A stretch of 64,000 bases of DNA. Origin: an uncultured Acidobacteriota bacterium. GTDB lineage: Bacteria > Acidobacteriota > UBA6911 > RPQK01 > JAPXNP01. The position numbers and the translations under genes are program-made. Below the pieces are notes generated by a model. The model did no database searches. It saw only the letters and a program-made list of their open reading frames with translations, and was not told the origin of the DNA. Numbering within the stretch: the first letter of the stretch is position 1; each line of letters starts with the position of its first letter. The stretch lies in assembly GCA_963777605.1 (NCBI GenBank), contig CAVZRV010000029.1, forward strand, positions 256,001-320,000. Direction: 5' to 3'. Shown here in pieces: positions 6,252 through 29,335 of this stretch.

Positions 6252-6435
6252 TGTGCCTCCACTGTGCCCGCGGGGATCTCGTCTGAGCTCACCCAAACCA
6301 ACTCCAGCTCAAGGTCGGGTTTCAGGATGATGCGGGTTCTCTTTATATTTCAAAGGCTTACGGAATCACGCAACAGCCCTTAATATCCTGTGGGGGGGAA
6401 CCCCCGTACGGGTTCGATTCCCGTCCCGGGCATTT
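6252..6435 (+). repeat. att-like site A: integrase arm, IHF-like box and tRNA-Leu 3' half
   Basis: TGTGCC at 6252 and 6263; TTTCAAaggcTTA 6348-6360; tRNA fragment 6379-6432. Confidence 0.9.
6379..6432 (+). pseudogene. tRNA-Leu(TAA) 3' half, anticodon loop variant CTTAATA
   Basis: Anticodon loop, long variable arm, ACGGG-TTCGATT-CCCGT T-arm, acceptor 3' strand and discriminator A; no 5' half. Confidence 0.85.
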
Positions 6436-6482
6436 CGAAGTGCGAAATTCGAAGTGCGAATTTGAATTTGGCCATATGGAGT

Positions 6483-6506
6483 GCTGAACCGAGAGGTTCA
6501 GCTTTT
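6483..6506 (+). terminator. intrinsic terminator downstream of att site A
   Basis: GCTGAACC-GAGA-GGTTCAGC-TTTT. Confidence 0.65.
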
Positions 6507-6735
6507 GCGCGCCTGGTATGGCTTGCCGTGTCTCAGGAAGCGAAAGCTTCCGTCCTCTTCAATTGTGTACGATACCGGGAGGGGCAATTCATGGGTTTCC
6601 TCGCTGGGCAAGTGATAATGCTTCGGGCCGGCAACCAGGCAGGGCTTTCTCGATCGCTTCCAAGCGGGCCAGTTGCCCCGTTTTCTGGGGACGAACGGCT
6701 TGGGCTTTCCGCTCAACGCCAGACGGGTTCGACGC

Positions 6736-8394
6736 CTAACCGTCGGATTGACGGGCCTGGAGGATCATCATGAGAAACTCAGCCTCATTCATGCCCGCAT
6801 ACGGCATTTCGGGGTGAGGATCGACGGGGACTATCGTATCCAGCTTGGACCAGTACGCCCGGTGGATCGTGTAGTCCTCGGTTTCGGGGTTCCACTCCAA
6901 AAAGAAGATGTACCGCTCGTTGAGCCTGGGGAAGCCCCGGCCGGTAACCGTATAGGTCGCCCATCGTCGATCATTGATATCAAGTGATCCTCCCGCTCGC
7001 GTTCCGGTCAGGACTCCCTGGACAAGCGGCCGGGTCATGGTCCCGTCGATTACACGCTCCACCTTCAGGCGGTATTCCGAATAAATCGCGGATCCATCCA
7101 GAGAATAGAAGCTCTGAATTCCATCCACTGTCGCGATGACAACGGTATCCTGATTGGGGTCCGCTAGTGACGGGAGGTCCGTCGAGACGTGTTCTCTGTT
7201 CTTCCAAACCGTTTGCCATCGTTCCAGGAGACGGGGAATGCCCGGCTGGTTGTACCGCGCGGATCTGCTGTCACGCAGATCTGCGGAAACGGCTGTTGAA
7301 TGACCCTTTGGACTCCTCCGTTCGGGCAATGAGAAGCGCTCGATCTCGGACCACAATCCCTCCAGTCCCAAGGGGTTGCTGCGGAGCTGAACGACCGCTT
7401 CCCGTTCGAACGGAATCAGCAAGGGATCGAATCGCCAGACCTTGTCCAAACCGATTGCGGCAAAGCTCTCGGCGTAGTAGCGTTCATCTTCATTGGCAAA
7501 AATGCCCGTTTGATGTGCCTTGCCGCCTTCATCTGTGACGGCCAACTGAATCCGGCAGGCTCCGCAGCCGCAGGTCCTGCTGAACGCTGTGATCTCCTTT
7601 CCCACCATGGGCTTTCCGTCAAGATGGAAGGTCAGCCGGAACTTCCGGTTTTTCCAGTACTCGACTCGTATTGGTGTGACCCTATTGGTCAAACGGGTAA
7701 TCAAACGGTCCCGTGCATCATCCAGGTCCGTATTTCCGCGGATATGGGCATGCAGACCCGTGGGGAAACGGAACAGGTATTCGAAGTCCCCGTCGGGAAC
7801 TTCGATGAGCCCGTCGTCGTTGCTCTCCGCCACCTTGAGTAAATCTATTCCGTTTGCGACTGTGCAGTGGTTCGACGTGCTCCAGAGCATGTTGATTTCA
7901 ACCTTCGCTCCCGCAACCGGCGTCCCATCGGTGGTCATCAGACGGACCAACCTCTCCTCCGGCCACCGCAGTACGACATCGACCGTAATCACATCGTCGA
8001 TCCCAAGTGCTACTGCTGCATGTCTCGGGAATGAGACCGTCCGGGGAATCGAGAGGTCGGTTTCCTCTCCGAATAACTTGAATGGTTTCGACTTGAGCGG
8101 AGCGTAGCCGGAAGCCCGAAGCAGGATATGCCCTTCCACCGCGTTGGGTATCGGTCGCTCCGGCCACCACCGCTTGAGTTCGTCGGGAGTCAAGACGACA
8201 GTCACCGTGCTGCCGGTCGGCTGAAGACTGTGCCGACGGGTACCCCCATAATTCAAGAGGAGCATCTCGGCCTCAACCGAGGGGATCGGACGACCCTCTT
8301 CGTCGGTCACCTGAAGGATCAGCTCAGCCGCGGACAGTTCCACCATCAGGGCATAGAGGCAGAGCAGAATGACGGATGTCTTTCTCTTGATCAC
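6736..8394 (-). CDS. exported Cys-cluster protein with carboxypeptidase-regulatory-like beta-sandwich repeats
   Basis: Signal peptide, VTDEEGRPIP and TTDGTPVAGAKV repeats, WSTSNHC and CGCGAC motifs; start set at GTG 8394 (ORF open to 8451). Confidence 0.75.
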   Translation of the reverse strand: MIKRKTSVILLCLYALMVELSAAELILQVTDEEGRPIPSVEAEMLLLNYGGTRRHSLQPTGSTVTVVLTPDELKRWWPERPIPNAVEGHILLRASGYAPLKSKPFKLFGEETDLSIPRTVSFPRHAAVALGIDDVITVDVVLRWPEERLVRLMTTDGTPVAGAKVEINMLWSTSNHCTVANGIDLLKVAESNDDGLIEVPDGDFEYLFRFPTGLHAHIRGNTDLDDARDRLITRLTNRVTPIRVEYWKNRKFRLTFHLDGKPMVGKEITAFSRTCGCGACRIQLAVTDEGGKAHQTGIFANEDERYYAESFAAIGLDKVWRFDPLLIPFEREAVVQLRSNPLGLEGLWSEIERFSLPERRSPKGHSTAVSADLRDSRSARYNQPGIPRLLERWQTVWKNREHVSTDLPSLADPNQDTVVIATVDGIQSFYSLDGSAIYSEYRLKVERVIDGTMTRPLVQGVLTGTRAGGSLDINDRRWATYTVTGRGFPRLNERYIFFLEWNPETEDYTIHRAYWSKLDTIVPVDPHPEMPYAGMNEAEFLMMILQARQSDG

Positions 8395-8464
8395 GATGGT
8401 CGTCTCGCGGGGATCATCGTATCGGCCGGTTTGGTGGATGGCAAACTCCAATTCGGCAGAGTGG

Positions 8465-9157
8465 CTAGTCGGGCTTCATGGTGATCACGACGGTGAAGAT
8501 GACGGATACGGGTTCTCCGCCAAGGTAGGTCGGCTCCCATGTCCATTGTCTGACCGCCTCGGTTGCGGCCTCCGCCAGTTTGCGATTCCCTCGAATAGTC
8601 TTCACGTCCACGACGCTTCCCGTCTTGTCGGCCGTCACCTGGAGCAGGATGGTGTCCTCGATTCCTTCCTGTCTGAGCGCCTCGGGATAGATCGGCGGGA
8701 CGAATACCCGGAGTTTCCGTTCCTGAACGCGCTCACCAACCCGGATCGGTTCTCGACCGCCGTGGGGCGGTGGCTTGTTCACGATCTGAGAGCCTCGGAT
8801 CACGATGGCTTTAGCGACAGCCTGAAGGGGATAGGTTGGGTGCACGTTCGGCTGAAGCCAGAGTTTCAGGAACGATCCAGGTTTGAGTGCGTCGAAATCA
8901 GCGCGCTTGAGCGGTTCGAGATAGATCTCAGTATCGGCGGTGACCGTTATCGAGGTAACGAGATTCTCATCCGAAGGCTCAAATCGGCCTCCCTCATTCC
9001 GGAAGACGGAGAACTCTCCGATGACTCTCCCCGGTTGGTCAAACTTGGTGACTTGCTTGATGAAGCCCCGGAGGTCTGGCGTTCCATGGGGAGGAGCCGA
9101 CGGCACATTGCAAGCGAGAGCCTGGAGGACGAGGACCAACTGAAGGCTTACCAACAT
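8465..9157 (-). CDS. TonB C-terminal domain protein with N-terminal OB-fold-like region
   Basis: PIRVGERVQERKL...PIYPEALRQEGIEDTILLQV...LAEAATEAVRQWTWEPTYLGGEPVSV. Confidence 0.85.
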   Translation of the reverse strand: MLVSLQLVLVLQALACNVPSAPPHGTPDLRGFIKQVTKFDQPGRVIGEFSVFRNEGGRFEPSDENLVTSITVTADTEIYLEPLKRADFDALKPGSFLKLWLQPNVHPTYPLQAVAKAIVIRGSQIVNKPPPHGGREPIRVGERVQERKLRVFVPPIYPEALRQEGIEDTILLQVTADKTGSVVDVKTIRGNRKLAEAATEAVRQWTWEPTYLGGEPVSVIFTVVITMKPD

Positions 9158-9307
9158 CTCACCAACTTAGACTGCACTGGCGGCTTCTTTGTTCCCGCCT
9201 TTCGCCCGGTCGAGATCTGGTCCATCACATCGTAGCTGAGCGCATAGAGTTGAGCGTTTGGTCATATCGTGGTGGTGCATCCTCTGACACGCGGGTATTC
9301 TTGACCA

Positions 9308-9496
9308 GTGAAGGTCAGGGATCTGATCAGGTTGATCGAAGAGGACGGATGGTGGCAGGCTCGAACCCGGGGCAGTCATCGTCAATTCAAGCACTCGGAG
9401 AAGCCTGGACTGGTGACCATTTCGGGTAAGATGGGAGATGAACTTGCCCCTGGAACGTTGAACAGCGTTCTGAAGCAGGCGGGACTCAAACGATGA
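9308..9496 (+). CDS. hicA: HicA family toxin
   Basis: EDGW..ARTRGSHRQFKH...GLVTI...GTLNSVLKQAGL. Confidence 0.92.
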   Translation: MKVRDLIRLIEEDGWWQARTRGSHRQFKHSEKPGLVTISGKMGDELAPGTLNSVLKQAGLKR

Positions 9497-9708
9497 AGCG
9501 TTATTTGATTGTTATCGAGGAAACAAAAAGCGGGTTTTCAGCCTACTCTCCCGATCTGGACGGCTGCATTGCCACGGGAGCGACGCAAGAAGAGGTGGAG
9601 TCGAGAATGAGGGCGGCCATCGAGTTCCACCTTGAGGGACTCAAGGAAGAGGGTTGTCAAATTCCGGAGCCTCACACGGAATCCCGGTATGTCGATGTCG
9701 CTGTTTGA
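9493..9708 (+). CDS. hicB: HicB family antitoxin (short form)
   Basis: YLIVIE...FSAYSPDLDGCIATGAT.EE...AIEFHLEGL. Confidence 0.92.
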   Translation: MKRYLIVIEETKSGFSAYSPDLDGCIATGATQEEVESRMRAAIEFHLEGLKEEGCQIPEPHTESRYVDVAV

Positions 9709-9752
9709 GCGACTTGCGCGGGGAAGGAATTGCCTGAACGGCGGTTCGGAGT

Positions 9753-9937
9753 TGTGCCTGCAGTGTGTCCGCGTGGATCACGGCTAATCTCACTCGATGC
9801 AACTCCAGCTCAAGGTCGGCTTTCAGCCTGACGCGGCTGCTCTTTATATTTCAACGACTTACAGAGATCACGCAACAGCCCTTAAAATCCTGTGGGGGGG
9901 AACCCCCGTACGGGTTCGATTCCCGTCCCGGGCATTT
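9753..9937 (+). repeat. att-like site B (tRNA-Leu 3' half at 9881-9934)
   Basis: TGTGCC 9753 and TGTGTC 9764; TTTCAAcgacTTA 9849-9861; CTTAAAATCCTGTGGGGGGGAACCCCCGTACGGGTTCGATTCCCGTCCCGGGCA. Confidence 0.92.
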
Positions 9938-10002
9938 GCCCAGAACCCCCGTGCGACGCGGCTTTCCGGCTCGAAAACCCTCCTTCGCACTCCGCACTTC
10001 AC

Positions 10003-10073
10003 AGATCGCACTTTCCCCCGGTTGTGCCTGTACTGTGTCCGCGAGAATCCAACTCCAGCTCACTTGTAGCAAA
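10003..10073 (+). repeat. short arm-only variant (copy s2)
   Basis: tgtgcctgtactgtgtccgcgagaatccaactccagctcac; matches 178-248 and 39090-39150. Confidence 0.85.
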
Positions 10074-10236
10074 GATGAAGAGGAGGTCTCTCCTCCTTCA
10101 CCTGAGATTTCCGGCTCAATCGTAGTCGGTGCTTCCCGATTGTCTGAGAAAGCCTGCGAATCGGGTTGCCTCCGGCACAGCCACCATTCATAATCCAGGG
10201 ACACCTCAAACCGCTTCCGAACGGAGGGCATTCGGT

Positions 10237-10892: not shown

Positions 10893-10902
10893 AGTGACCC
10901 GG

Positions 10903-12570
10903 CTATCCGCCGGATTGACGGGCCTGGAGGATCATCATGAGAAACTCAGCCTCATTCATGCCTGCATACGGCATTTCGGGGTGTGGATCAACGGGGATGA
11001 TGGTATTCAAGTTGGACCAGTACGCCCGGTGGATTGTGTAGTCCTCGGTTTCGCCGTTCCACTCCAAAAAGAAAATGTATCGCTCGTTGAGTCTGGGGAA
11101 GCCCCGACCGGTGACCTTAAACGTGGCCCTTCGCTGCGGATCAATCTTGATCGATCCTCCGGCCCTGGTTCCTGTCAAGACTCCCTGAACAAGCGGCCAG
11201 GTCATGGTGCCGTCGATTACCCGCTCTACTTTGAGGCGATATTCCGAATAGATCGCCGAGCCGTCCAGAGAGAAGAAGCTCTCAATTTCGTCAACCGTCG
11301 CGATCACCACGGTATCGTGTGTCGGGTCCGCTAGTGACGGGACCTCCGTCGAGATACTTTCTCTGTTGGTCCAGCTCATGTGCCGTCGCTCCAGGAGGGG
11401 CGGTATCCCCGGCTGGTTGTACCGCGTCGATCTCCGTTCCCGTACACGGCTGGAAACTACGGTTGGATGCTGGGCCTTGCGGGGAGGTTCGGTTGATGAG
11501 AAACGGTCGATCTCCTTCCAAAGCTCCTCCAGCCCCATCGGGTTGCTGCGGAAGTGGACAACGGATTCTCGGTCGTGGGGTATCAGAAGGGGATCGAATT
11601 CCCAGATGCTGTCCATGGTGAACGCTTCCGAAAATTCGGGATAAATTCCGTTGCTACTTTTGAAAAACGGTGTGAATTGTGCGGCCCCCGCTTCGTCCGT
11701 CACTGCCATAAGCATGCCGCAGGCCCCGCAGGGGCACCCTCTTCGTGAAGCCACCAGCTCTTTCCCGGCCAGAGGCTCTCCATCGAGCAGGAAGGTTAGT
11801 CGCAGCTGCCGAGGTTCCCAGTACTCGATGACGACGGGAGTTACGTCAGCCGGTAACCGCATGATCAGCCAGTTATTTACGTTACTGGATTCGTCGTTTC
11901 CGACAATGTGCGCATTCCTGAGCGTCCGGAACCAAAACAGATACTCGAAATCGCCGTCAGGAACCTCGATGAGGCCCTGGTCGTTGCTCTTTGCCACCGC
12001 GAGCAGGTCGGCACCCGTTGCGACTCCACAGTGATTGGCAGTGCTCCAAAGCATGCTGATTTCAACCGTCTCTCCCACAACCGGCGTTCCGTCGGTCGTC
12101 ATCAGGCGAAGAAATCTCGTTTCCGGCCTTCGCAATCTGACGTCGATCGTTCTTACATCGTCGACCCTAAGCGCCACGGCTTCATGTCTCGGGAATGAAA
12201 CCGTCCGGGGAGCCGAGAGGTCCGTTCCCTCTTCGAACAAATCGAAGGGTTCCGACTTGAGCGCAGCATACCCGGGAGCCCGCAACAGGATTTGTCCTTT
12301 GACAAAGTGGTTGGGCATCCGTAGATCGGGCCACCAGCGCTGCAGTTCGGCGGGAGTGAGGACGACAGCCACGGTGCCGCCGGCCGGCTCAAGTGCGATT
12401 CGGTGAGTGTCCCCCCAGGTGTAGCTCCATTTGGCGGTTTTCTGGCGTCCGGCGTTGTCGTAGCTCCAGTAGATCCCCAGCGGATTGGCCCCGTAGTCGT
12501 AGACGCCGGGCCACTTCGACTGAGTCAGCCCGCCGAGCTTGCGACCCCGTTGCGACGCATAGTCTTGCAT
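10903..12570 (-). CDS. paralog of 6736-8394 with the N-terminus replaced by an RHS/YD-like fragment
   Basis: Collinear from ...VVLTP onward (WSTANHC, CPCGACG, near-identical C-terminus); no signal peptide; first ~52 aa include WSYDNAGRQKT. Confidence 0.7.
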   Translation of the reverse strand: MQDYASQRGRKLGGLTQSKWPGVYDYGANPLGIYWSYDNAGRQKTAKWSYTWGDTHRIALEPAGGTVAVVLTPAELQRWWPDLRMPNHFVKGQILLRAPGYAALKSEPFDLFEEGTDLSAPRTVSFPRHEAVALRVDDVRTIDVRLRRPETRFLRLMTTDGTPVVGETVEISMLWSTANHCGVATGADLLAVAKSNDQGLIEVPDGDFEYLFWFRTLRNAHIVGNDESSNVNNWLIMRLPADVTPVVIEYWEPRQLRLTFLLDGEPLAGKELVASRRGCPCGACGMLMAVTDEAGAAQFTPFFKSSNGIYPEFSEAFTMDSIWEFDPLLIPHDRESVVHFRSNPMGLEELWKEIDRFSSTEPPRKAQHPTVVSSRVRERRSTRYNQPGIPPLLERRHMSWTNRESISTEVPSLADPTHDTVVIATVDEIESFFSLDGSAIYSEYRLKVERVIDGTMTWPLVQGVLTGTRAGGSIKIDPQRRATFKVTGRGFPRLNERYIFFLEWNGETEDYTIHRAYWSNLNTIIPVDPHPEMPYAGMNEAEFLMMILQARQSGG

Positions 12571-13336: not shown

Positions 13337-14089
13337 TTACGCGAAAGGGAGACTGGTCTGAGCGACCTCCGGCAGTTCCGGTGGGGACTCGAAGGGCTCG
13401 TTCAACCAGGTCCACAAGTCGCGATGCACGAACAGGTTCATGCGCAACAGCGCCGCCAGATTGGACAGGGACCAATCATAGGTCGACTTCAACTGCAGGA
13501 AGCGAAGGATCAGCATGGAGATCAGTGCTGTCCAAATTTGAGTCTTCAATGCGTTCGGGCTGGTGCCGACGAAGGTCTTGATCTTCAGGTTCTGCTTGAG
13601 GGCCTTGAAGTCGTGATCCAGCAGGAGATGGAGTTTGACGGCCCCTTTGGTGCGCTGGAACCGGGCCCAGTCGAACAGCGATGCACACAGATCGATCACG
13701 GTGGCGTCCAGACTCACCAGCGGATTCTTGAACCGAAACGGCTTGCGACGGGGACCGACGGTCAAGGTCCGACAGCGATCCAGCAGACAATGGAACACCT
13801 GCTCGTAAAGCTCCCAGGGACGGTGCTCGTTGGCATAGGACAGAGTCGAGCGCTTGGGGATCCGGATCCCGAGGTGGCTCAATTTGCCTTCGCAACTGGC
13901 CAGCCCACCGCAGATTTCCCGCAGGCTTTGGGCTTTGCCCAGGTGGCAGAACAGCATGGAGACGAACTGGGTCCAGCAGCCAAAACCCCGGGCGTGGCGC
14001 TCGGCTTTGGTCTCTTGGACCAGTTTCTGGAACTCGAGACGCGGAAAAAGCTGGAGAAGTTGGCTGAAGATGCTGCAAAATCGACTCAC
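13337..14089 (-). pseudogene. IS4 transposase with an in-frame deletion of most of the DDE domain
   Basis: SIFSQLLQL...SLREI...LDATVIDLC...GAVKLHLLLDHD joined directly to FKALKQNLKIKTFVGTS. Confidence 0.88.
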
Positions 14090-14180
14090 GGCTGAGCTCT
14101 CCCTTCCGATTGGATCTGGTTTGGCAACCCAATCGTACGAGGAGCGGCTCAGCCGCTCAATCCTGAATTTCTAATTTGGA

Positions 14181-15872
14181 GTGCGGCCGGGCAAGGTCGC
14201 GTATTCGAACGGGTGGGAATCCCGTCCCGGTAAGGCAGGCCCGCCACCGGGTAGCGAGCCCTTGGAGCCGAGGGAGCAATCTCTCGGTTTAAGCGTAGGG
14301 CCGCAAGCAGTTAGGCCGTAAGCCGCAAGGCTGAAGGGATGGAGCCTCGAAAAAGACAATGGGAAGGACGACGCAGTTCCAAATGCGGAAGTCAACAGAG
14401 GCGGGACCGCCAGGGCCTGGTCTCGTTTCCTTCCCCGGGGTCGGAGACCACGGCATGGCTGACACGACGAGTGCGCGGCAACCCGGGAGACCCTGCTGGT
14501 GCTTCCCGAAAGGGGAGAGCTTTCGAACAACCGGAAGAAGGGAGGACGAGGGTAACGCCGGTAGGGAATCGGATCACCTCATAGTACCGAGGAAGGCGGG
14601 TAATGCCGCTGGAGGAAAGGAGGTGACGTGGTGAGCGACCGGAGTGGGGAGACACCGACCGTGCCCAGAGGCGGGGAATCGGTGAGAACGAAACTACTTC
14701 GGATAGCCGAGAAAGCCCGCAGAGAGCCGAAATTTCGGTTCACAAGCCTGTTTCATCTGATGAAAGAGGAATTGTTGCGGGGGTGCTTTGACCGACTGTG
14801 TAAAGATGCAGCGGCGGGCATTGAACCGAACGGTGTCGAGGGGGTGCGTGAACTGGATCGTGGAAGCGGATATCAAAGGTTTCTTTGAGAACGTGGACCA
14901 CGACTGGATGATGCGGTTTCTCTCTCATCGGATCGGGGACCGGCGGGTTCTTCGGTTGATTCGACGGTTTCTAAAGGTCGGAGTGGTGGAAGATGGGCGT
15001 GTGGAGCCGGCGGAGGAGGGCACGCCGCAAGGCGGAGTGATCTCGCCGCTTCTGGCCAACGTCTATCTTCATTACGTGCTGGATCTGTGGTTCGAGAGGC
15101 GGTTTCGCCAGAGCTGCCGCGGTCAGGCGAGATTGATTCGCTACTGCGACGACTTTGTGGTCTGCTTTACACATGAAGCGGAAGCACGGCGTTTTCAGAG
15201 TGAGTTGATCGAGCGGCTGGGGCAGTTTTCGCTGGAGGTGCAGCCTGAGAAGACGAAGGTGCTGGCCTTTGGGCCAAAGGCGGCGGCGAGGGCCGCGGCC
15301 GACGGCCGAAACAAGCCGGGGACCTTTGACTTTCTGGGATTCACGCACTACGGCAGTCGAAGCCGCAACGGCCGGTACTTTCGGATGAAGCGAGTGACGG
15401 CCCGGAAGCGTTTCCGAGCCAAACTCCACGCCCTGAAGGCCTGGCTGAAGGCGGTGCGGTCTCGGCTGACGACCCGGGAACTGTGGCTGGCCTATGGGGC
15501 CAAGCTCCGTGGGCATTATGGCTACTACGGTGTCTCGGATAACTCGGTCGGGATCGGGCGCTTTGCTTATGCGGCGGGACGGCTACTCTATAAGTGGCTG
15601 AACCGTCGCGGTGGCAAACGACGGCTGAGCTGGGATCAGTTCAACCGCATGGCCCGGCGATATCCGTTGCCGAAACCACGGGTGACGGTCAGCCTGTTCT
15701 GAGGTGAAAGATCCTACGGGGAGCCGGGTGCGTGAGGTGCGCAAGCCCGGTTCTGAGAGGGGCGGGTGACAACTGAAGGATGGTCGAGATCTTGTGGCAC
15801 CGCTGGGAAACCAGGCGGAAACGGAGAAAACAAACTTCGACCTAAGCTTTGGGAGGAACCCGTCTACTCGCC
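14181..15872 (+). mobile_element. group II intron (IIB, bacterial class E-like)
   Basis: 5' GTGCG; domain V gagccgggtgcgtgaggtgcgcaagcccggttc at 15721-15753; 3' end ...ctactcgcc; EBS1 tccaaa (14378-14383) pairs with IBS1 tttgga. Confidence 0.9.
14682..15702 (+). pseudogene. ltrA: intron reverse transcriptase/maturase lacking RT0-RT2, no endonuclease domain
   Basis: RTKLLRIAEKAR...FTSLFHL...AAAGI joined out of frame to VEADIKGFF...GTPQGGVISPLLAN...RYCDDF...FDFLGFTH. Confidence 0.88.
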
Positions 15873-15985
15873 CAAGAGTGGTACTAATGCGGTTCCTGTT
15901 TTAATGTACTACGGTTCTAGTGGGGAGACAGGCACTCACCATCTCTATATTCGAGAATTCGTATCACTTCGATAGGAGAGTTGAC

Positions 15986-16958
15986 ATGCATACTCGGAGA
16001 GCGATCCCCGTCGTGATGGGTCTTCTGTGCTTCTGCTGCTGGATATTCCAAACGAGTCTTGGTTTCGCCGAGGAAGCTTCGCCTGAATGATTTCCGGGTT
16101 GTCCTGCCGCAAGTGGCCCGAGGCGGATCCGGTTCGATCACGATCGAAACCCACATCGTTGTAGTCCATCCCGGCCCGAGCGTCGGGGCGATTGAAGTGG
16201 AGATCCACGGCTCTGACGATGAACTCTTGAGCCCCGGGAGTTTCGTTCTTGAATCCGGGGCATCCAGGGCGATTGACTTGGTCGGGGGAGAGCTACGCAA
16301 CGGCGCTGTGATCATCGCTGCATCAGCCGAACTCGGTGTAGCCGCGAACCTGGTGGTCCGCAAGTCGGGTGAAATTACATCTCAGGTTTCCATATCGGCC
16401 CGACCACTGGCAAGCCTCTTCGTCATTCCGGTGCTCTACGGGGGGCCGGAATCGTCGGTGAGCAATACGGGCATTGCGGCGTATTTCCAGACGCCCGGAA
16501 CGTATCGGGCCGATCTATTCGATCCGGACGGGAATCTTGTGGATTGGAAAGGGTTCTTCATTCCCACTCCCCCGACTCAGGTTCATGTCGCCGGATTTCT
16601 GGACGAGTGGTTCGAAATCCCTGACGGGTTTACTCAAGGCTCGGTGGTTTTCTACACGGTACGGGCTCAGCCCGTAGCGTTTGCGACCACTGCCTTGTAT
16701 TCCAAGGACGAGCGCCTGTGGGCGGCTCAAGCGTTTGAAATCAAGCGAGCGGATTACTACGCTGTCAGTCTTGTATCGAAGGATAACCTCGCGCAGGAGA
16801 TGGAAGGATTGGCCGAGCAGTATGGTCTCCAGCTGGACAGCGTGGGGACGTCAATCGCTCTGGTCGTGTGCGACCAAGAGAAGGCTCGGGCATTGGAGCG
16901 CGACCCGCGTGTTCAGAGCGTTCTCCCATCACGCTTCCCCATCGGTTTTGAGGATTAG
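15986..16958 (+). CDS. exported protein with C-terminal peptidase-propeptide/inhibitor-I9-like domain; frameshift near 16090
   Basis: AGGAG RBS and signal peptide MHTRRAIPVVMGLLCF in one frame, body VVLPQVARGG...LERDPRVQSV in another. Confidence 0.6.
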
Positions 16959-20738: not shown

Positions 20739-20744
20739 AGCCTG

Positions 20745-23700
20745 CTAGTTCTGTCTGCTCCTGCCCAGTTCCAACAAGGCCCACTCAGCTGCGCTTTTCA
20801 AAACGTTTCTAGGCGACTTCATCGTTAACGCTTCCTTCAAAAACGCTTCTTCTGAAGAATTTCCGCATTTTCCAATCGACCTCAGGATTTCCGCCTGGGC
20901 CAGATAGCTATTCTCTGATCGGAATTGTTCCATTAGGAAAGAGACCCATTTCCGATCCCTCAGTCCCCCGATAATCCGAAAGACCGACGCTCTCACTTGA
21001 GAGTTTTCATCCTTGCCAATCTCTTTCAGGAGATTCTCGTTCATGACACCCGCGAACTCCCTCAAAGCCTCAACGGCACTCCTCCTGACGGCCCAGAATG
21101 GGTCATCTTGCGCACTTTTGGACAACTGATCTCTTACACGCTGGTACTCTTCAAACTTTCCCAGCTCCGATGCGGCCCAGCTTCTTCCGATGACGTCATC
21201 ATTCGCCAGCTGAAAGAGAAGTTCATCCACCTCTTTCTCAAAGGTCCACTCTTTCAGCAGATAATTCCCCTCGTCGAACCGGACCAGAAGAGGCTTTTCA
21301 TCTCGCGGCGAAGTCAAATGTCTGTTCCCTCTGGTTGATCCAGACTTCTTTGGAAGTCCTTCCTCTTGAGGTGACGATCCCGACCACAACGGGCATATGA
21401 TAGACGGCATTTCCCGACCTGAAATCTTGAATCTGGCTAACTTTCAACCGGACAGTGCCGGAATTCTCAAGCCACTGGTAACTAACATCGAATACGGGGT
21501 GTCCCGCCTTATAAATATATTGGTCGAAGAACCAGTCCATGTTACGCCCTGTCGTTTCCTTCACGGCCAACATAAAATCATGAGTATCTACAGGCTGAAA
21601 CTCATGCTTGTGGAGAAAATTCTTTAACACTCTGAAGAACGGCGCATCACCCAAAATGTACCGCAACATGTGAAGGACGCAGGCCCCCTTTGGATAGGTA
21701 TGGCTGTCAAAATTCTGGCCAGGTTCTTCATAGCGCGTAAATACAATAGGTCGAGTGTATTCACGCCGAGCCTCTTCGAAATAGTCGTTCTTCTTTTGCA
21801 GCAGAGCGATTGCACATTCATCTTCGCCCTTGTCAAAGCAAGTGTAGAGATAATCCGAATAGGTTGCAAAACTCTCGTTCAGCCAAGTTTCGGACCATGT
21901 TCTCAAGGTGACAAGGTTCCCAAACCATTGATGCGCCACTTCGTGAGCAATAATTCTCTGCCAGGAGTAATCTTTGTCGGCTTTCCTGTCATAAATGACG
22001 TTCTGCCCGAGAATTGTCGCCGATGTTGCTTCCGCTCCTCCTCCCTGGGTCGGTGTTTCCACCTGATCATATTTTGCCCAAGGGTAGTCGTAGCCGAAGA
22101 GATTGCTGAAGAAATCGATCATCTCGGGCGTCTTCTTGAAGATCCGGCGCGCATCTTCGACATCTTGTTCATAAACCCAGTAATTGACGGGAAGAGAGCC
22201 TAGAGAATCTTCAATGACGGCAAAGGGGGCAATGGCTACCATGGATAGATAGGTCGAATGAGGTTCTTCTATTTAGGTTCTGCTTGAGGGCCTTGAACAT
22301 CAGCTCGATCTGCCATCGTTCCTTGTAAATGGCCGCGATGGTCGCCGGGACGAGTTTGAACAGGTTGGTCAGAAACGCAGGCGCCCTGGACGGGATCGTC
22401 GATTTCGACGAGGCGGAAGCGACAGGGCCGTCCTTGGTGCAGGAGGCCGTAGAGATGGATGATCTGATCGGAGACGACGGGAGAGTTCTCGGGCAGCGGA
22501 AGCTGCTTGACCACCCCGTAGTTGGCGTTGCTTTTCAGCCGGGTGACGAAGAAGACCCCTGCTCGGTGAGGTCGCGTACCAGCGTAGTCGGTATAGCCCG
22601 GTCGAAGACGACAATGGTCCCCGCTTCGAAGTGCAGCTGCGGCCGGCCGTCAGATCGGAGACGGCGCCTTCGGTGATGCAGGCGAATTCGGCAAGTAGCC
22701 GTCGTGATCCAGAAGGAGGTGGAGATTGACGGCCCCTTTGGTGCGCTGGAACGGGCCCAGTCGAATAGCGAGCACACAGATCGATCACGGTGGCGTCCAG
22801 GCTGACCAGCGGGTTTTTGAAGCGGAACGGCTTGCGGCGCCGGCCACGGTCAGCGTCCGGCACCGATCGAGCAGGCAATGGAACACCTGCTCGTAAAGCT
22901 CCCAGGGACGGTGCTCGTTGGCATAGGACAGAGTCGAGCGCTTGGGAATCCGGATGCCGAGGTGGCCAATTTGCCTTCGCAACTGGCCAGCCCACCGCAG
23001 ATTTCCCGCAGGCTTTGGGCTTTGCCCAGGTGGCAGAACAGCATGGAAACGAACTGGGTCCAGCAGCCGAAACCCCGGGCGTGGCGCTCGGCTTTGGTCT
23101 CTCGGACCAATTCTGGAACTCGAGACGCGGAAAAAGCTGGAGAAGTTGGCTGAAAATGCTGCAAAATCGATTCACGGGCTGGGTCTCCTCTTCGATTGGA
23201 TCTGTTTGACAACCCAATGTACGAGGGCGGCTCAGCTCAACCTGAATCTAATTGGGACCAGTGATACGTGACGGTCCCATCCAGATGTTCGGTGACCTTC
23301 TCGAGCCGTCCATTGGAGAGGACTTTATTCGGTTTTTCAACAGTGGCGATCAACTCCATCGTGACCTTGTCATGAGGGTAGTCGTAGCATGGAAACCAGT
23401 ATCGGGCCTCATCGGGCCAGGAATCGGTGGAGACCATCCTGGGATTTCGGTCAGTCTCATCGCTGAAGAAGAGGCCTTGTTCAGGGTTAGTTACATGATA
23501 TCGGACCGTAAAGGTCAGATCCTCACCGTAGCCATAGGTCCGGGGAAAAGAGATGATCAGCTTCTCACCGCTCTGCTCGAACGTGAGTGGCAAATACCGA
23601 CCATCGAAAACTTCTGTAATAACCAGGCCAGCTGCATCCAGAACGCATTTCTGAAAGCCATCTGTCAATGGCGTCAAAGTCACTCTATTCTCGCCCCAGA

Positions 23701-23872
23701 GTCTCTTCTTATTTAGATCGAAGTTCAGTTTCAGACGATAATGTCGAGCATCGAAATCATGGCTTCTCTCTACCTGTTCGGGTCTTTTATAGACATCAAT
23801 ATTCTGGGCTGAAATGTTTACCGCGCAGAGAACAAGGGCAATAGCCGTGATTTTGAAGATCTTCATTTGCAT
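20745..23872 (-). pseudogene. M1 aminopeptidase with C-terminal HEAT repeats, interrupted by IS4 and frameshifted
   Basis: ARYWFPCYDYP (5' part), GGGAE, IAHEVAHQWFG-x-WLNESFA, HEAT repeats; IS4 DNA lies between YHWS and IEEPHSTYL. Confidence 0.88.
22272..23263 (-). mobile_element. IS4-family remnant related to 13227-14180, many indels, 3' end missing
   Basis: Nucleotide similarity to the first copy; retains the HDGYLP to RWQIEL region absent from the first copy; left end cactggtcccaattag. Confidence 0.85.
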
Positions 23873-24109: not shown

Positions 24110-24645
24110 CCAAGCCGACTCTGGGTGCGGGCGTCCCGTGGTCTTGGGAGCGCACACACTCAGTAGCGAAGAACTCGCACCCGCTGCGAGAGTGGACCCC
24201 AGGGCCCTTTATCGTCTTCTCCGCACGTTAAGCACGGTGGGCGTTGTCTCGGAGTCGCGCGACCAAAGATTCACGTTGGGGCCCCTCGGAGAGGCGTTGC
24301 GAAGCGACGCGTCCTGTTCGATGCGGGCTTGGGCCATCTTCAGCGGCGAGCCCTTCTATTTGCAGGCGTGGGACCAGATCGTTCATAGCATTCAGACCGG
24401 CCAGCCCGCCTGGGAGCACGTACATGAGATGCCCATATTGAGTACATCGGAAAGCACCCGGACACAGGGCAGATCTTCGATCAGGCGATGACCAGTCTCT
24501 CCGCGAGAGAAGCTCCAGCGATCATCGATGCGTACGACTTCTCCAGCACTCGCAAGTTGGCAGACATCGGCGGTGGCCAGGGTCTGCTTCTGCGCACGAT
24601 TCTCAAGTCCCATGCCAACATGACTGGCATCCTTTTCGATCGCCA
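24110..24645 (+). pseudogene. O-methyltransferase (family 2) fragment
   Basis: ALYRLLRTL dimerisation region, YDFSSTRKLADIGGGQG SAM motif, GILFD, then abrupt end. Confidence 0.8.
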
Positions 24646-24878
24646 ACCCCGCTCTATCTTCCTCAAGTCTTTGCTGCAGTCGTGTAACTGGAACGCAAAC
24701 CCACAACCTCGACTTCAATACGAATCACTCTCAGCCAGCGAAGTAGGAATCGAAATCACTGATCGTCTTTGTTCCTTGGCCCGCCCCGGGCAAGCTCCAG
24801 AACACCGTTCGGACGGGCCTTTCCCCCTCTTTCCCGTACCTTGAACCACGAGCCATGAACCCGTTGCAGAGCCTAGAT

Positions 24879-25062
24879 TGTGCCCGAAGTGTGCCCGCGG
24901 GAATCACGTCTAATCTCACGCAATCCAATTCCAGCCAAAAGTCGACTTTCAGCCCGACGCGGCTTCTCTCTATATTTCAACACCTTACAGGAGCACGCAG
25001 CAGCCCTTAAAATCCTGTGGGGGGGAACCCCCGTACGGGTTCGATTCCCGTCCGGGGCATTT
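24879..25062 (+). repeat. att-like site C (tRNA-Leu 3' half at 25006-25059)
   Basis: TGTGCC 24879 and 24890; TTTCAAcaccTTA 24975-24987; acceptor-strand variant CCGGGGCA. Confidence 0.92.
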
Positions 25063-25421
25063 GCCTTCGGAAATCCCAAGGTCCAAGGGTCCAAATCTCA
25101 GGGCCGACGGGACCGATGGGACGGATGGAACTGGGGGGCGGGACGGCTTTGCGGCAATGCGACGGCCTGGGACGATGGACCAATCCGGGGGGCACGCAAC
25201 CGATGGTGGAGCGATCTCGGCCAGTGTCCCATGGGTCCCATGGAAGTCCCATCAGTCTCAGGCCGTGCCATTTTCCGCGAAGCCTCAGCCCCATACTCTT
25301 CACCCGTCCGATCGGTAAGACATCCTGGTCATTCTCATTGTTCGGGTCGGCCACCGTCGTGATGCCTGCGGGTAGCAGGACAGCATCAACCGGAGGCACA
25401 GAGAGATGCTGGTCAGGGAAG

Positions 25422-27186
25422 TCAGTAGCCGATACGAAGCGGAAGGCTCCAAGTATCCAGCTCGACCGGATCCGCCGGGGCATTGGTGATGGCAGCCGTG
25501 TCGACGTTCTGGCGGACGCTCATCATCGAGATACCATACTCGCAGGAGATGGACGCCGATCCCAGGAAGGGCTGCCCAATGGAGATGTGACCACGCGAAA
25601 AACTCGTCGGCGAAACGGCTCTTCTGTTCAAAGCCGCGGAGATCGAGGCTGGAGGATCCCAAAAGAGCTCCCCCCATCCCCTCATACAAGTTGAGTTGAC
25701 AGTGGTTCATCTTTGAACTGGCGTTCTGAATCGCCAGGCCTTGGCGGACTTGGTGGCTCTGCTGAATGGGGGTTCTCCAGGTCTTCGAATAGCGCCCGGG
25801 CAGCACGGTCACCTCGGGTCCATCCAGGGACCAGAAGCCCGAGACCGAATAAGAGCCCAGCCCCGTGAACCGTGTTGTCGCCGGCACGATATCGTCGAGA
25901 TCGGACGACACTTCCTTGGTCTCCATCGGATCTACTTGGATGGTCTTCTCCTCCATCAGAACACCTTCCGGCGAATAGAGGGCTACATCGACCTCCATTG
26001 GAGTCCGCTCGAAGCTGGAGAGCAAATACCTGGTTGCGCCGGGCACACTCTGGGGGGCAAATCGGAGATTCCCCAGATTCAGGTCCGCCGCCTTGAACTC
26101 GCCGCCCACATTACCGAGGATCCATCCCTTGCCCCGTTCCTGATCGACATCGAAGCCCAGAATATCGTCGAAGTCGGTATCGAACCGACCGAAGAGCCGG
26201 ATCGGGTCATCGGCGCCCACATCGCTGTACTCGAGCCCGTACAAGCGGGAACCCCAGGAGACCGCAGCCCGATTCATACCCAGTGGCCCGGCGGAGAAGC
26301 TGGTGCCCGCGGTTGACGGAAACAGGAACGTCTCTTTGGCGAAAGTCTTGCCGGCAGGGTCGTAGAGGTAGGAAACCAGATGATCCTCTCCGGGCAGCAA
26401 GTAGCTCGATCGAGTGCCCAGATTGACGACACCGGACGATCTCCCATACTCAGCCTCGAAGCCGGGCGCGGATGTGATGTTTCCGAGATCCGTCACGGTG
26501 TGGGAAAAATCGGAGTACTTGAGATCGATGGCCTGCAACTTCCAGTCTTTTGTCGTCGCAAAGATCGAGAAGAGGCCCAGTTCGTCGTTGGCCACGATGC
26601 GAGGGCGAATCCCTCCCGTGGATCTCGACAGATAGGAGGCACTGAGGTTGAGGTCGACCTGATTGTAGAGCGAGTTGGTTCCGCAATAGACCCGCAGTTC
26701 CTCTTCGAGCTGGTGAATTCCGATTGCGCAGGTCAGCCCGTCCGCGGACGTGGCGAGGTCCGCATCGGCAAAATTCGCACCGCCCGGGGCTGTGTAGAAC
26801 TCCTCCCAGTCGCCCGCCACGCTGATCTGGGCCACATGGAGCGAACCCGCTTCCGTGAGAGCGGCCCTGTAAGAGAGAGGACTCGCGCTCGGCGCGGTGC
26901 TGATGGAGGAAAAACTGGAGTTTGGCTGAAGGACGACGGCACTGCCATCCCGGTTGAAATGGGTCAGATTGTCGGAACCCGCGGTGACGCCCGGGGTGAT
27001 GGCCAGTACCGCCGAAAGATCTCGTGCCGGCGCGATGGCCGAAGCCTCCACTTCAGATACTGTGAAGCTCGAGGACGTTCTCGTTCCATCCACCACGGGA
27101 ACCCCGGCGTTCAAGCAGGGAATCAGACAGACTGCAAACATGACAACCAGACCTTTTCTTGTACGACTCACGATCTCTCCTTTCAC
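25422..27186 (-). CDS. large exported protein of unknown function, frameshift near 25600
   Basis: Signal peptide, beta-rich body, GLAIQN...SRFADEFF motif; plausible C-terminus in the alternate frame ending at 25422. Confidence 0.65.
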
Positions 27187-27289
27187 TGATCGCCTGATCT
27201 CGAGTCAGGCGGCAGGTTGGGTGGCCGGACATGAGTCAGCCGATGCCGAGGGGGCAGAGTGTTCAGGTCTCTCGTGAGCGATGAAGCTT

Positions 27290-27660
27290 GGCCGAAACGT
27301 CCGGCTTGCCGGATTTGAGAGCGAGTATGCCACCGAGCGATGCGAGGCGCAAGTCGTCCAGCGCCTGCATGGCCCGCGACTTTCAAGAGCGGATCGGGAT
27401 CCTGACGAGGTCCGACTTCGCGTGGCGGGGCGAATGGACAGTCTCGGGGCGGCCCTCCGCATCGGCAACGAGTTGGTGTCTCTCTACACGTGCGGACCTG
27501 CTGGCGGCGGTGGCGTTACGAAGTCGTCGCGCGAAATCGACGCGAAGGGCTGCACCTTCATACCGAGGGACATTGTCGAGACCAGGGTCCAGTTCCTGGA
27601 GACAAAGTCAGTGAAGCTGAGAGAAATTGCACACTGTCGGGCCGGAGACGAGGGGGATCT
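27290..27660 (+). pseudogene. AtuA (DUF1446) C-terminal fragment plus start of the adjacent AtuA-related small protein
   Basis: EVRLRVAGR...IGNELVSLYTCGPAGGGG and VKLREIAHCRAGDEGD. Confidence 0.7.
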
Positions 27661-27861
27661 ATCTCAGCCTCAACCGAAGGGATCGGACGACCCTCTTCAT
27701 CGGTCACCTGTAGGATCAGCTCAGCTGCGGACAGTTCCACCATCAGGGCAAGAAGGCAGAGCAGAATGACGGATGTCTTTCCCTTGATCACGATGGTCGT
27801 CTCGCAAAGCTCATCCTATCGGCCGGTTTGGTGGAGGGCAAGGTTCAATTCGCCAGGGGGA

Positions 27862-28555
27862 CTAGTCGGGCTTCATGGTGATCACGACGGTGAAGATGAC
27901 GGATACGGGTTCTCCGCCAAGGTAGGTCGGCTCCCATGTCCATTGTCTGACCGCCTCGGTTGCGGCCTCCGCCAGTTTGCGATTCCCTCGAATAGTCTTC
28001 ACGTCCACGACGCTTCCCGTCTTGTCGGCCGTCACCTGGAGCAGGATGGTTTCTCTCGATTCCTTCCTGTCTGCGCGCCTGGGATAGACCGGCGGGACGA
28101 AAACCCGGAGTTTCCGTTCCTGAACGCGCTCACCAACCCGGATCGGTTTTCGACCGCCGTGGGGCGGTGGCTTGTTCACGATCTGAGAGCCTCGGATCAC
28201 AGATAGCTTTAGCGACAGCCTGAAGGGAATAGGTTGGGTGCACGTTCGGCTGAAGCCAGAGTTTCAGGAACGATCCAGGTTTGAGTGCGTCGAAATCAGC
28301 GCGCTTGAGCGGTTCGAGATAGATCTCAGTATCGGCGGTGACCGTTATCGAGGTAACGAGATTCTCATCCGAAGGCTCAAATCGGCCTCCCTCATTCCGG
28401 AAGACGGAGAACTCTCCGATGACTCTCCCCGGTTGGTCAAACTTGGTGACTTGCTTGATGAAGCCCCGGAGGTCTGGCGTTCCATGGGGAGGAGCCGACG
28501 GCACATTGCAAGCGAGAGCCTGGAGGACGAGGACCAACTGAAGGCTTACCAACAT
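27862..28555 (-). pseudogene. second copy of the TonB C-terminal domain gene, frameshifted
   Basis: Near-identical to 8465-9157 apart from small indels. Confidence 0.85.
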
Positions 28556-28705
28556 CTCACCAACTTAGACTGCACTGGCGGCTTCTTTGTTCCCGCCTTT
28601 CGCCCGGTCGAGATCTGGTCCATCACATCGTAGCTGATCTCATAGAGTTGAGCGTTTGGTCACATCGTGTTGGTGCATCCTCTGACACGCGAGTATTCTT
28701 GACCA

Positions 28706-28894
28706 GTGAAGGTCAGGGATCTGATCAGGTTAATCGAAGAGGACGGATGGCGGCAGGCTCGAACCCGGGGCAGTCATCGTCAATTCAAGCACTCGGAGAA
28801 GCGTGGACTGGTGACGATTTCGGGTAAGATGGGAGATGAACTCGCTCCTGGCACGTTGAACAGCGCTCTGAAACAGGCAGGACTCAAAAGATGA
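28706..28894 (+). CDS. hicA: HicA family toxin, copy 2
   Basis: 59 of 62 aa identical to 9308-9496. Confidence 0.92.
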   Translation: MKVRDLIRLIEEDGWRQARTRGSHRQFKHSEKRGLVTISGKMGDELAPGTLNSALKQAGLKR

Positions 28895-29106
28895 AGCGTT
28901 ATTTGATTGTTATCGAGCAAACAGAAACCGGGTTTTCAGCCTACTCTCCCGATCTGGACGGCTGCATCGCCACGGGCGCTACGCAAGAAGAGGTAGAGCG
29001 GAGAATGAGGGCGGCCATTGAGTTCCACCTTGAAGGACTCAAAGAAGAGGGTTGTCAAATTCCGGAGCCTCATACGGAATCCCGGTATGTCGATGTAGCT
29101 GTTTGA
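28891..29106 (+). CDS. hicB: HicB family antitoxin, copy 2
   Basis: 67 of 71 aa identical to 9493-9708. Confidence 0.92.
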   Translation: MKRYLIVIEQTETGFSAYSPDLDGCIATGATQEEVERRMRAAIEFHLEGLKEEGCQIPEPHTESRYVDVAV

Positions 29107-29150
29107 GCGACTTGCGCTGGGAAGAAATTGCCTGAACCTGGGTTCGGAAG

Positions 29151-29335
29151 TGTGCCCACATTGTGCCCGCGGGAATCTCGTCTGATCTCACCTAATCCAA
29201 CTCCAGCTCAAGGTCGATTCTTTGGACTGACGCAGATTCTCTTTATATTTCAATCACTTACAGGATCACGCAACAGCCCTTAAAATCCTGTGGGGGGGAA
29301 CCCCTGTACGGGTTCGATTCCCGTCCCGGGCATTT
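29151..29335 (+). repeat. att-like site D (tRNA-Leu 3' half at 29279-29332)
   Basis: TGTGCC 29151 and 29162; TTTCAAtcacTTA 29248-29260; same core as site B with one variable-arm change. Confidence 0.92.

Follow-up and report, generated by a model that had tools for sequence, protein, structure and literature searches.

A tandem array of integrase-free, att-like junctions at tRNA-Leu(TAA) in an uncultured Acidobacteriota bacterium

Tandem repeats downstream of tRNA-Leu(TAA)

The window analysed here is a 64-kb stretch of DNA from an uncultured Acidobacteriota bacterium (C29:256001-320000 in the source bin G000, which comprises 6.7 Mb in 53 contigs with 5.7% contamination), and the subject of this study is a tandem array of four repeats within it, each ending in the 3' half of tRNA-Leu(TAA). 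Unless a contig is named, coordinates are those of the window, with negative values denoting positions upstream of its start on C29. A repeat search of the window returned one family with four co-oriented 187-nt copies, designated A to D (6249-6435, 9750-9936, 24876-25062 and 29149-29335), whose starts lie 3501, 15126 and 4273 nt apart. Alignment with MAFFT divided each copy into an arm of ~130 nt (A, 6249..6378; B, 9750..9880; C, 24876..25005; D, 29149..29278; all on the plus strand) and a core (A, 6379..6435; B, 9881..9937; C, 25006..25062; D, 29279..29335; plus strand), which corresponds to the 3' part of tRNA-Leu(TAA), starting with CTTAAAA in the anticodon loop and running through GGGCA to the discriminator A. 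When the four copies were compared with the whole genome by BLAST, E values of 5e-50 to 2e-93 were obtained, far beyond chance expectation. Pairwise arm identity was 77-83%, and the cores A, B, C and the most distal, D, differed from the intact tRNA by 1, 0, 1 and 1 changes over 54 positions (counted by eye). Immediately 5' of the loop, the copies read CGCAACAGCC and the tRNA reads CGCACAGGA, so that identity starts at the anticodon loop, which is flanked in the copies by an imperfect inverted repeat (ACAG..CTGT). A previous sequence-only reading of this DNA had already described four co-oriented repeats whose tRNA part begins at the anticodon loop within an imperfect inverted repeat, and whose arms form one diverged family; its coordinates and spacings were all reproduced by the repeat search, MAFFT and BLAST, and the loop boundary by alignment to the intact tRNA.

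ARAGORN called zero tRNAs in the window. An intact tRNA-Leu(TAA), the sole Leu(TAA) among the 52 tRNAs called by ARAGORN in this assembly, is located at C29:255211-255298 (-789 to -702), 0.7 kb upstream of the window. As in Campbell-type integration, an intact tRNA thus stands at one end, followed by 3' fragments of the same tRNA in direct orientation, and the block of identity begins at a standard sublocation, the anticodon loop. The sequence-only reading had pointed upstream for an intact tRNA with a recombinase beside it; the tRNA was found there, without an adjacent integrase.

The 5926-bp contig C18 is 97.9% identical over its whole length to 27587-33479 and spans copy D in unchanged order; it is a strain-variant duplicate within the bin, consistent with the 5.7% contamination. 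Misassembly of the array is unlikely, because the arms differ by 17-23% and C18 spans copy D in matching order. A further locus of the bin (C27:600774-601857, minus strand; 3-4 kb from the contig end) carries two tRNA-Leu(TAA) 3' halves 1 kb apart with almost no arm; between them lies just a TonB_C gene, 89% identical to 8434-9216, and no intact tRNA is close by.

Absence of a recombinase from the array

Scans with PF00589 and PF00239 detected no site-specific recombinase in the 64 kb, as had been claimed before; transposase fragments and the reverse transcriptase of a group II intron are present. A six-frame search of the whole genome with PF00589 gave 27 matches, of which the sole one on C29 (337163-337687) lies 17 kb past the window end and 51 kb past copy D; for serine recombinases (PF00239), there were zero matches in the genome. 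The integrase at C29:336.5-337.7 kb was rejected as a partner of the array on account of this distance and of the absence of a tRNA-Leu fragment nearby, and no tyrosine recombinase was found in C29:245-336 kb. For the detection of degraded copies, hidden Markov models (HMMs) of three integrase families (24, 16 and 5 sequences) were run with filters off against all stop-to-stop frames of >=25 aa from C29:250-322 kb, from the arrays of the related genomes G012, G013 and G019, and from the C27, C28 and C18 copies. Integrase remnants, proposed earlier as a mark of ordinary island decay, were not detected in these targets (best match, E = 1.2). The array therefore lacks an integrase, down to remnants, and cannot move by itself. 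An integrase of the type found at tRNA-Leu in other organisms (L232-type, see below) gave no match at E<=1e-20 in G000 or in its relatives G011-G013.

Three cargo open reading frames (ORFs) beside cores, of 571, 555 and 628 aa, were considered as hidden recombinases and discarded, as they had no Pfam or NCBIfam match; the 571- and 628-aa proteins are unrelated, and the 571-aa N-terminus is hydrophobic and export-signal-like (by eye). Polymerase, primase and helicase families were absent from the Pfam matches of the scanned ORFs, some small ORFs being left unscanned.

Properties of the arm

Across 18 arm copies from seven genomes, mean column identity was 75%, with conservation in blocks: GTTGTGCC-N5-TGTGCCCGCG; CTCAC..CCAACTCCAGC; GACGCGG..TCTC; and TATATTTCAAC-N4-TTAC. 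The last block is one mismatch off the consensus for integration host factor (IHF), a weak point. An AT-rich TATATT block lies ~35-45 nt before the tRNA half. RNAalifold found 0 consensus pairs among the 18 copies, and the arm is therefore neither a folded RNA nor an attC-like hairpin; a structured-RNA or attC reading was dismissed on this ground and because the only Rfam match in the window is the group II intron. The arm is a DNA site that does not fold, with conserved blocks and short direct repeats (TGTGCC, twice) as its components.

The initial 55-70 nt of the arm are repeated in the same orientation ~85 nt rightward of both the tRNA and core B, with one more occurrence at 170-247. Lambda-like attP sites carry repeats on either side of the core, and the names P (arm) and P' (right-hand repeat) are used here in this sense. 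The P' repeat of core B is contained in its right flank (9938..10075, plus strand; TGTGCC-N5-TGTGTCCGCG at 10023). The copy at 170..247 (plus strand; AGATCGCAC..GGTTTTGCC-N5-TGTGTCCGCG..AATCCAACTCCAGCTCACTGGAACCAA) was identified by self-BLAST (87% to -642..-566), a model match at C29:256196-256272, motif scan and alignment; the other member of the pair is found 812 bp further upstream, beyond the window and immediately to the right of the intact tRNA. With up to two changes allowed, the motif TGTGCC-N5-TGTGYCCGCG had 15 matches in the 6.7-Mb genome, nine of which are the four arms, the three P' copies, C18 and a locus on contig C31; these nine are all co-oriented. The TGTGCC repeats may represent binding sites of an integrase.

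The two P'-type repeats near the window start (78 nt each, 87% identical) enclose an 812-bp unit (-642 to 247; C29:255358-256247) with a lone 192-aa minus-strand ORF that has a signal-like N-terminus. In G013, a P' repeat is interrupted by a ~920-bp module of small toxin-antitoxin-like ORFs, a module that occurs at a different place in G012. Exchange may take place at the P' repeat itself.

Physical links between the arm and integrases

Within G000, the only integrase tied to the arm family is associated with tRNA-Arg(TCT). At C31:138650-138830, the same arm is joined to the 3' half of tRNA-Arg(TCT) and followed by TGGGTGC repeats and an integrase stub (locus to 139123), which represents the last 88 codons of a tyrosine integrase and is 93% identical to an intact integrase on contig C30. 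The latter (386 aa, PF00589 plus SAM-like domain) converges on an intact tRNA-Arg(TCT) (C30:3835-3911), from which it is separated by three TGGGTGC repeats; the locus is situated at the start of the contig (C30:1-3911).

A scan of public collections with TTGTGCC-N5-TGTGYCCGCG yielded at least 120 metagenome loci and 4 viral loci. Among the matches listed (124 loci), arm or P' sequences were recovered in 37 (nhmmer) and a tyrosine integrase in 14 (tblastn, E<=1e-8); three independent contigs (L232, L214 and L143), again among the matches listed, combine tRNA-Leu(TAA), the motif and a converging integrase. L232 contains a 434-aa integrase ORF (PF00589, E 2e-16) and four TGTGCCC repeats, the integrase of L143 is a C-terminal stub only, and L238 shows the same arrangement of motif and integrase at tRNA-Val. 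Within 4.8 kb, contig L231 carries, in order, tRNA-Leu(TAG), a P' repeat, an integrase ORF of 184 aa that covers the C-terminal two-thirds, a minus-strand cargo ORF of 833 aa, and an arm, recognised by the arm model, with a tRNA half starting at the anticodon loop; it has the design of the window units plus an integrase, albeit truncated. A second integrase family (L203-type) has the motif ~70 nt before its start and 205-285 nt past its stop codon. The direct TGTGCC repeats in P and P', together with the position of the motif next to integrase genes (L232, L214, L143, L231, L238 and the L203-type loci) and of the arm next to the stub on C31, give the arm the features of an attP-type arm with putative integrase sites. 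Candidate autonomous elements with the same att site were found in other organisms (L231, L232, G008:C9); in G000, such a candidate was found just at tRNA-Arg.

The locus in G008:C9 (L117, 390001-410000) contains an intact 374-aa L232-type integrase ORF, 4.4 kb from a tRNA half and a four-repeat P'. Two arms at this locus are followed by just the anticodon stem-loop (CAGGACTTAAAATCCTG) and then by shared non-tRNA sequence, which hints that the anticodon stem-loop may be the minimal recombination core.

Gene content and mosaicism of the units

Unit 0 (tRNA to A) encodes a DUF2971 protein, a DpnII/MboI-like nuclease domain, an XRE-type helix-turn-helix protein and an antitoxin/ParE pair (Pfam, NCBIfam). 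This pair (5589..6148, plus strand; antitoxin, 5589-5861, PF09720, E 7.7e-15; ParE toxin, 5858-6148, PF05016, E 1.2e-10) adjoins arm A, and the same module also precedes arms in G011, G012 and G013. The cargo of unit 1 (6736..9157, minus strand) consists of the 571-aa protein without family assignment (6736-8451) and a TonB_C protein (8465-9157); immediately before arm B follow a HicA toxin (9308-9496; PF07927, E 4.5e-20) and a HicB antitoxin (9493-9708; PF15919, E 2.6e-9) on the plus strand (9308..9708), an arrangement shared by G012 and G013.

Unit 2 (B to C) contains the 555-aa paralogue of the 571-aa protein (10903..12570, minus strand; 74% nucleotide identity over 1.5 kb) and a composite region at 13337..16400 (right end approximate), formed by an IS4-like transposase fragment (DUF4372; 13337-14089, minus strand) and an adjoining group II intron (Rfam RF02005 at 14216-14450, E 7e-40). 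The reverse transcriptase ORF of the intron (14788-15702, 304 aa) looks truncated. Further to the right, an M1 aminopeptidase gene (21298..23872, minus strand; Peptidase_M1, 21298-22242; Peptidase_M1_N, 23237-23872) is broken by a second insertion sequence (IS) copy (22269-23257), the two IS copies being 91% identical (13610-14180 vs 22701-23257). The unit also holds IS6-like transposase fragments, an M24 peptidase gene and, adjoining arm C, O-methyltransferase fragments in two short ORFs (24138..24844, plus strand). Unit 3 (C to D) comprises a cargo segment (25163..27463, minus strand) with the 628-aa ORF (25300-27186, no family match), an AtuA fragment and a second TonB_C-HicA-HicB module (27661..29106), in which two minus-strand ORFs (27862-28200 and 28130-28555) represent a split TonB_C and HicA (28706-28894) and HicB (28891-29106) adjoin arm D. 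Three of the four arms (A, B and D) are thus accompanied by a toxin-antitoxin pair, and these pairs probably hold the units in place.

The units share sequence in patches. Self-dotplot and per-100-nt identity analysis showed 94% identity between 8264-9937 and 27661-29335, including 300 nt at 100%, and 74% between 6733-8226 and 10900-12393. The tRNA with its right flank is 90% identical to core B with its right flank over 208 nt, and A and D have similar flanking sequence for 35 nt past the core. Along the B/D repeat, identity is 95-100% within TonB_C, only 78% in the arm, and higher again in the core; recent duplication thus does not explain the arms, even though the adjacent DNA was exchanged recently. 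The IS insertions, the group II intron, the split genes and the patchy similarity between units (74-100%) show later decay and homologous exchange.

Distribution and arrays in related genomes

The distribution of the arm was determined with a sequence-only covariance model in 76 genomes of the order, some of which had marginal matches alone. The arm was detected in 35 of these genomes and in 15 of 32 genera, with up to 19 matches per genome. The C30-type integrase was present in 17 and the L232-type in 22 of the 76 genomes. Arms occurred in 14 of the 17 genomes with a C30-type integrase vs 21 of the 59 without (Fisher p 8e-4; hand tally, kin not independent), and 14 of the 35 arm-bearing genomes lacked either integrase type at E<=1e-20 (hand tally).

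In G012, an array lies downstream of the syntenic tRNA-Leu(TAA) (sites at 723920, 725115, 731362 and 738641). G013, a relative from the same family, has one on contig C4 (sites at 23555, 30385, 51467, 55695, 61423 and 66972), with the intact tRNA on contig C9 and a presumed C9-C4 join. Arrays were also found in G019, a complete genome of another family, and a tyrosine recombinase was not found within the arrays of any of these three genomes. Unit order varies by genus: the 628-aa gene precedes a ParE module in G012 and G013, and AtuA-TonB-HicAB here. The variable order anticipated by the sequence-only reading was thereby borne out in G012 and G013, with one cargo segment in common at 96%. This segment (25163-27463) is 96.1-96.3% identical over 2.3 kb between G000 and the arrays of G012 and G013, which belong to another genus, whereas the chromosomal flank upstream of the tRNA is only 73.5-74.8% identical over 2.8 kb. 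It begins ~100 nt to the right of core C and stops at 27463, inside the unit; since its ends do not coincide with cores, its transfer need not have been site-specific. At ~96%, the amino-acid identity of the 628-aa ORF is no higher than the DNA identity, so that purifying selection on the ORF is not evident.

For comparison with metagenomes, 22 runs, containing at most 0.14 of the sampled words, were considered as Logan contigs; the four runs compared yielded contigs of relatives only. The 25163-27463 segment recurred with few differences in soil, marine-sediment and marsh contigs, similarity again ending at 27463. Other contigs joined a C-like arm and core to a B-type flank, or carried a D-like arm and core in a foreign context on both sides. 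A search of public collections for the exact junction pattern returned G013 as the sole match among genome contigs and none among viral contigs.

Several units are very small, namely a 1.3-kb tRNA-HicAB-arm-core unit in G012, the 1-kb core-TonB_C-core unit on C27 and the 812-bp P'-flanked unit. Two proteins encoded downstream gave only paralogues or nothing in G011-G013. In G007, an integrase of another family lies beside tRNA-Leu(TAA), and neither an arm nor a core was found within 37 kb of it.

The T-loop of the displaced half is broken after GGTTCGATT in five copies of arm plus core that come from four genera: C28:1-246 (minus strand), L078:520-650 (G012:C1:731520-731650), L044 (G013:C4 ~55860-55970), L039:1655-1780 (G015) and L030:95-225 (G001). 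The insert of ~105-125 nt starts with G(T/C)TCGC..GCTCAC and stops just before TTCCCG, where the tRNA half resumes; it had no Rfam match and no fold better than shuffled sequences, and may perhaps be a miniature element. A supposed 7-kb element at the core T-loop in G012 proved to be such an insert of ~105 nt, after which the core continues; the segment past this interrupted core encodes a kinase, an asparagine synthase and an O-methyltransferase and no recombinase. In the complete genome G040 (L122-L125, G040:C1), three ARAGORN-intact tRNA-Leu(TAA) genes are each followed by a P' repeat, and several halves occur across five loci. In G040 and G019 (L126-L127, G019:C1), multi-copy transposases of ~445-464 aa with an N-terminal FDGG..SDAG, presumably IS1380-like, are found near many such sites.

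Origin of the array

The array is probably a set of remnants resembling cis-mobilisable elements (CIMEs), left by serial small tyrosine-integrase islands that were stacked at tRNA-Leu(TAA) by tandem accretion. The four repeats would then be hybrid att junctions composed of a P arm, a core and, in two cases, a P' arm, because the motif adjoins integrases at tRNA-Leu(TAA) elsewhere, because L231 reproduces the unit and because C31 combines the arm with an integrase stub; taken as a whole, this reading is held with moderate confidence. Briefly, small islands encoding a tyrosine integrase would have integrated repeatedly into the lone tRNA-Leu(TAA) that precedes the window, and each would have brought along a tRNA copy reaching from the anticodon loop to the 3' end. 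A crossover within or next to this loop would restore the tRNA, and the prior 3' half, now behind the P arm of the newcomer, would be moved distally. Such rebuilding of the tRNA and displacement of its former 3' half is the standard Campbell-type model for tRNA-targeting islands. That the cores are tRNA-like at 53-54 of 54 positions and the arms only 77-83% identical would follow if each half served a working tRNA until the next integration. The order of the integration events may be read from this anatomy, and each unit would be a cis-mobilisable remnant, excised or joined only by an integrase from another element.

Several observations weigh against this account. Some ~15 att-bounded intervals (four in G000, three in G012, six in G013 and two in G019) yielded no integrase remnant, although simple decay should leave stubs such as those at C31 and L143, and some units, of 0.8-1.3 kb, could never have accommodated both an integrase and cargo. 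To the right of cores A, C and D there is no P' repeat, and the three P' copies share one end point, followed by unrelated cargo. The two arm-associated integrase families are barely alike (blastp E 0.011), which leaves more than one candidate for the enzyme that binds the arm, and at eight other metagenome loci among the matches listed, the first large ORF past P' encodes an ordinary enzyme. Duplication or homologous exchange, and not integration, gave rise to part of the array (8264-9937 vs 27661-29335). Finally, no empty site was found in relatives, because the tRNA-Leu(TAA) flanks of G002 and G004-G008 are not syntenic with G000.

Some of the same observations fit units that were non-autonomous from the outset, i.e. 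attP-only modules with cargo and toxin-antitoxin genes that are moved at tRNA-Leu(TAA) by an integrase acting in trans, an alternative we regard as possible yet unlikely. In its widest form, equally tentative, Acidobacteriota would harbour an order-wide population of never-autonomous attP-only cassettes, each consisting of a P arm, a tRNA-half core, a P' arm and one to a few cargo genes, often a toxin-antitoxin pair, which would be captured, reshuffled and exported at tRNA-Leu(TAA) by integrases visiting on small autonomous relatives. Such an origin would account for the remnant-free intervals in four genomes, the mini-units, and the sharp common P' end with differing cargo behind it. It would also suit the different unit orders among genera, the occurrence of the same arm on other flanks in metagenome contigs, the 2.3-kb cargo that is 96% identical across genera with a 74% flank, and the 14 of 35 arm-bearing genomes that keep arms without either integrase family. 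Yet no tRNA-Leu-type integrase was found at E<=1e-20 in G000 or G011-G013 that could run the system now, and this also counts against the proposal, made in the sequence-only reading, that a single integrase serves the array in trans. The 96% segment is not bounded by cores; the units contain IS fragments, disrupted genes and an intron; a platform bearing a promoter or a neighbouring integrase is absent; and the contigs of relatives from the four runs, which represent relatives only and not the source population, contained neither circles nor empty sites. Tandem accretion with cis-mobilisable remnants therefore fits better than a new cassette machine.

It is improbable that segmental duplication and unequal homologous recombination, acting on one ancestral attR region, were the main source of the repeats in place of four integrations. 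The 94% match with its 300 identical nucleotides, the 74% match between 6733-8226 and 10900-12393 and the 35 nt shared by the flanks of A and D would be in keeping with duplication; the arms of B and D, however, are just 78-81% identical despite 95-100% in the neighbouring TonB_C and hence are not recent duplicates, the arm lineages are tied to distinct toxin-antitoxin modules that recur in other genera, and the arrays in G012, G013 and G019 have other unit contents. We consider it very unlikely that the arm and tRNA half function as a small, tRNA-like RNA or as a regulatory element that is maintained in its own right: the presence of the arm in 35 of 76 genomes and the TATATT block before the tRNA half could be seen in this light, but the 18 copies have no consensus structure, the window contains no Rfam family besides the group II intron, conservation resides in short blocks and direct repeats, copies occur just at att-like junctions beside tRNA halves, and the same arm stands on a different tRNA half at C31. 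An assembly artefact of the metagenome bin, with collapsed or chimeric repeats, is hardly credible, since, in spite of the 5.7% contamination, the strain-variant C18 and further copies near contig ends (C27, C28), assemblers would not confuse arms that are ~20% different, C18 confirms the order around D, and like arrays lie inside long contigs or complete genomes (G012:C1, G013:C4 and G019).

Comparison with known systems

Tandem accretion and CIMEs are reportedly exemplified by ICESt1 and ICESt3 of Streptococcus thermophilus. Like CIMEs, the units described here are att-flanked members of an integrative-element family that have no recombination genes of their own and stand in tandem at one site, and in principle they could be excised by the integrase of a related element. 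They differ in the site, which is a tRNA anticodon loop here and is said to be the 3' end of fda for ICESt1 and ICESt3, and in the run of at least four consecutive integrase-free units, the absence of a helper of the right type from the genome and the toxin-antitoxin genes beside the arms.

Arrays of integrative mobile elements exploiting Xer (IMEX) at dif, such as CTX/TLC in Vibrio, use the host XerC/D recombinases and 28-bp dif-like sites. The present array may be likened to them in that integrase-less elements stand in tandem and the recombinase would be encoded elsewhere; unlike dif-like sites, its sites are tRNA halves with the long arms typical of phage-type integrases.

In integrons, the attC sites fold, being imperfect palindromes, and most cassettes are single ORFs that lack a promoter and share one orientation. 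The analogy to an integron drawn by the sequence-only reading is only partly supported. What holds is the existence of integrase-free att units with one arm family and, as in integron arrays and clusters of attC sites lacking integrases (CALINs), of co-oriented repeats between variable, toxin-antitoxin-rich cargo for which an adjacent integrase is dispensable. What fails is the comparison of machinery and content: the arm consists of direct repeats and does not fold into an attC-type hairpin (0 pairs), there is no platform (IntI, attI or the cassette promoter Pc), and the units are 3.5-15 kb long and multi-gene, have coding sequence on either strand, and include toxin-antitoxin operons of their own, disrupted genes, IS fragments and an intron.

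The tycheposon islands of Prochlorococcus are seeded by tRNAs, and successive integrations push older material distally; they contain scattered partial tRNAs, and most of their material lies outside integrase-bearing elements (bioRxiv 10.1101/2020.12.28.424599, as far as its accessible text goes). The tRNA anchor, distal displacement, partial tRNAs and integrase-free material are shared with the present array, and partial tRNAs and integrase-free material in tRNA-anchored islands may by analogy serve as a precedent (Hackl et al., in the text available). Going by the same text, those islands have fragmented integrases, whereas none are detectable here, and the scanned ORFs of the array include no replication module or other tycheposon hallmark gene. 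The conserved 130-nt arm and the adjoining toxin-antitoxin pairs are features of the present array that were not encountered for tycheposon islands in the accessible part of that source.

According to the available portion of the Islander report, crossover is anticodon-centred in 2083 of 3919 islands (Hudson et al. 2015, PMC4383910), which, like the array, show a restored tRNA, a displaced 3' fragment in direct orientation and an anticodon-centred crossover. Islander requires an integrase for each member, and this appears to be why its 3919 islands include only 4 tandems of three or more (PMC4383910, same portion); unlike those islands, the window array has no integrase and would, by the procedure described there, be filtered out. 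Because tools of this type demand an integrase per island, such arrays go uncounted.

A keyword search of the literature returned no description of this Acidobacteriota array, although such a search cannot show that it is unpublished. As it stands, the array adds a further instance of tandem accretion with cis-mobilisable remnants and does not represent a new mechanism. It provides a clean, well-delimited case of a tRNA hotspot filling with integrase-free, toxin-antitoxin-capped units in a little-studied soil and sediment phylum, and its att-arm signature (TGTGCC repeats plus conserved blocks) detects junctions in 35 of 76 genomes and connects them to candidate integrases. If the units can be mobilised in trans, they would offer a route for the exchange of small cargo, as hinted at by the 96%-identical 2.3-kb segment found across genera, and if they were attP-only cassettes from the start, the array would represent a tRNA-anchored gene-capture system, integron-like in function and phage-type in its att sites.

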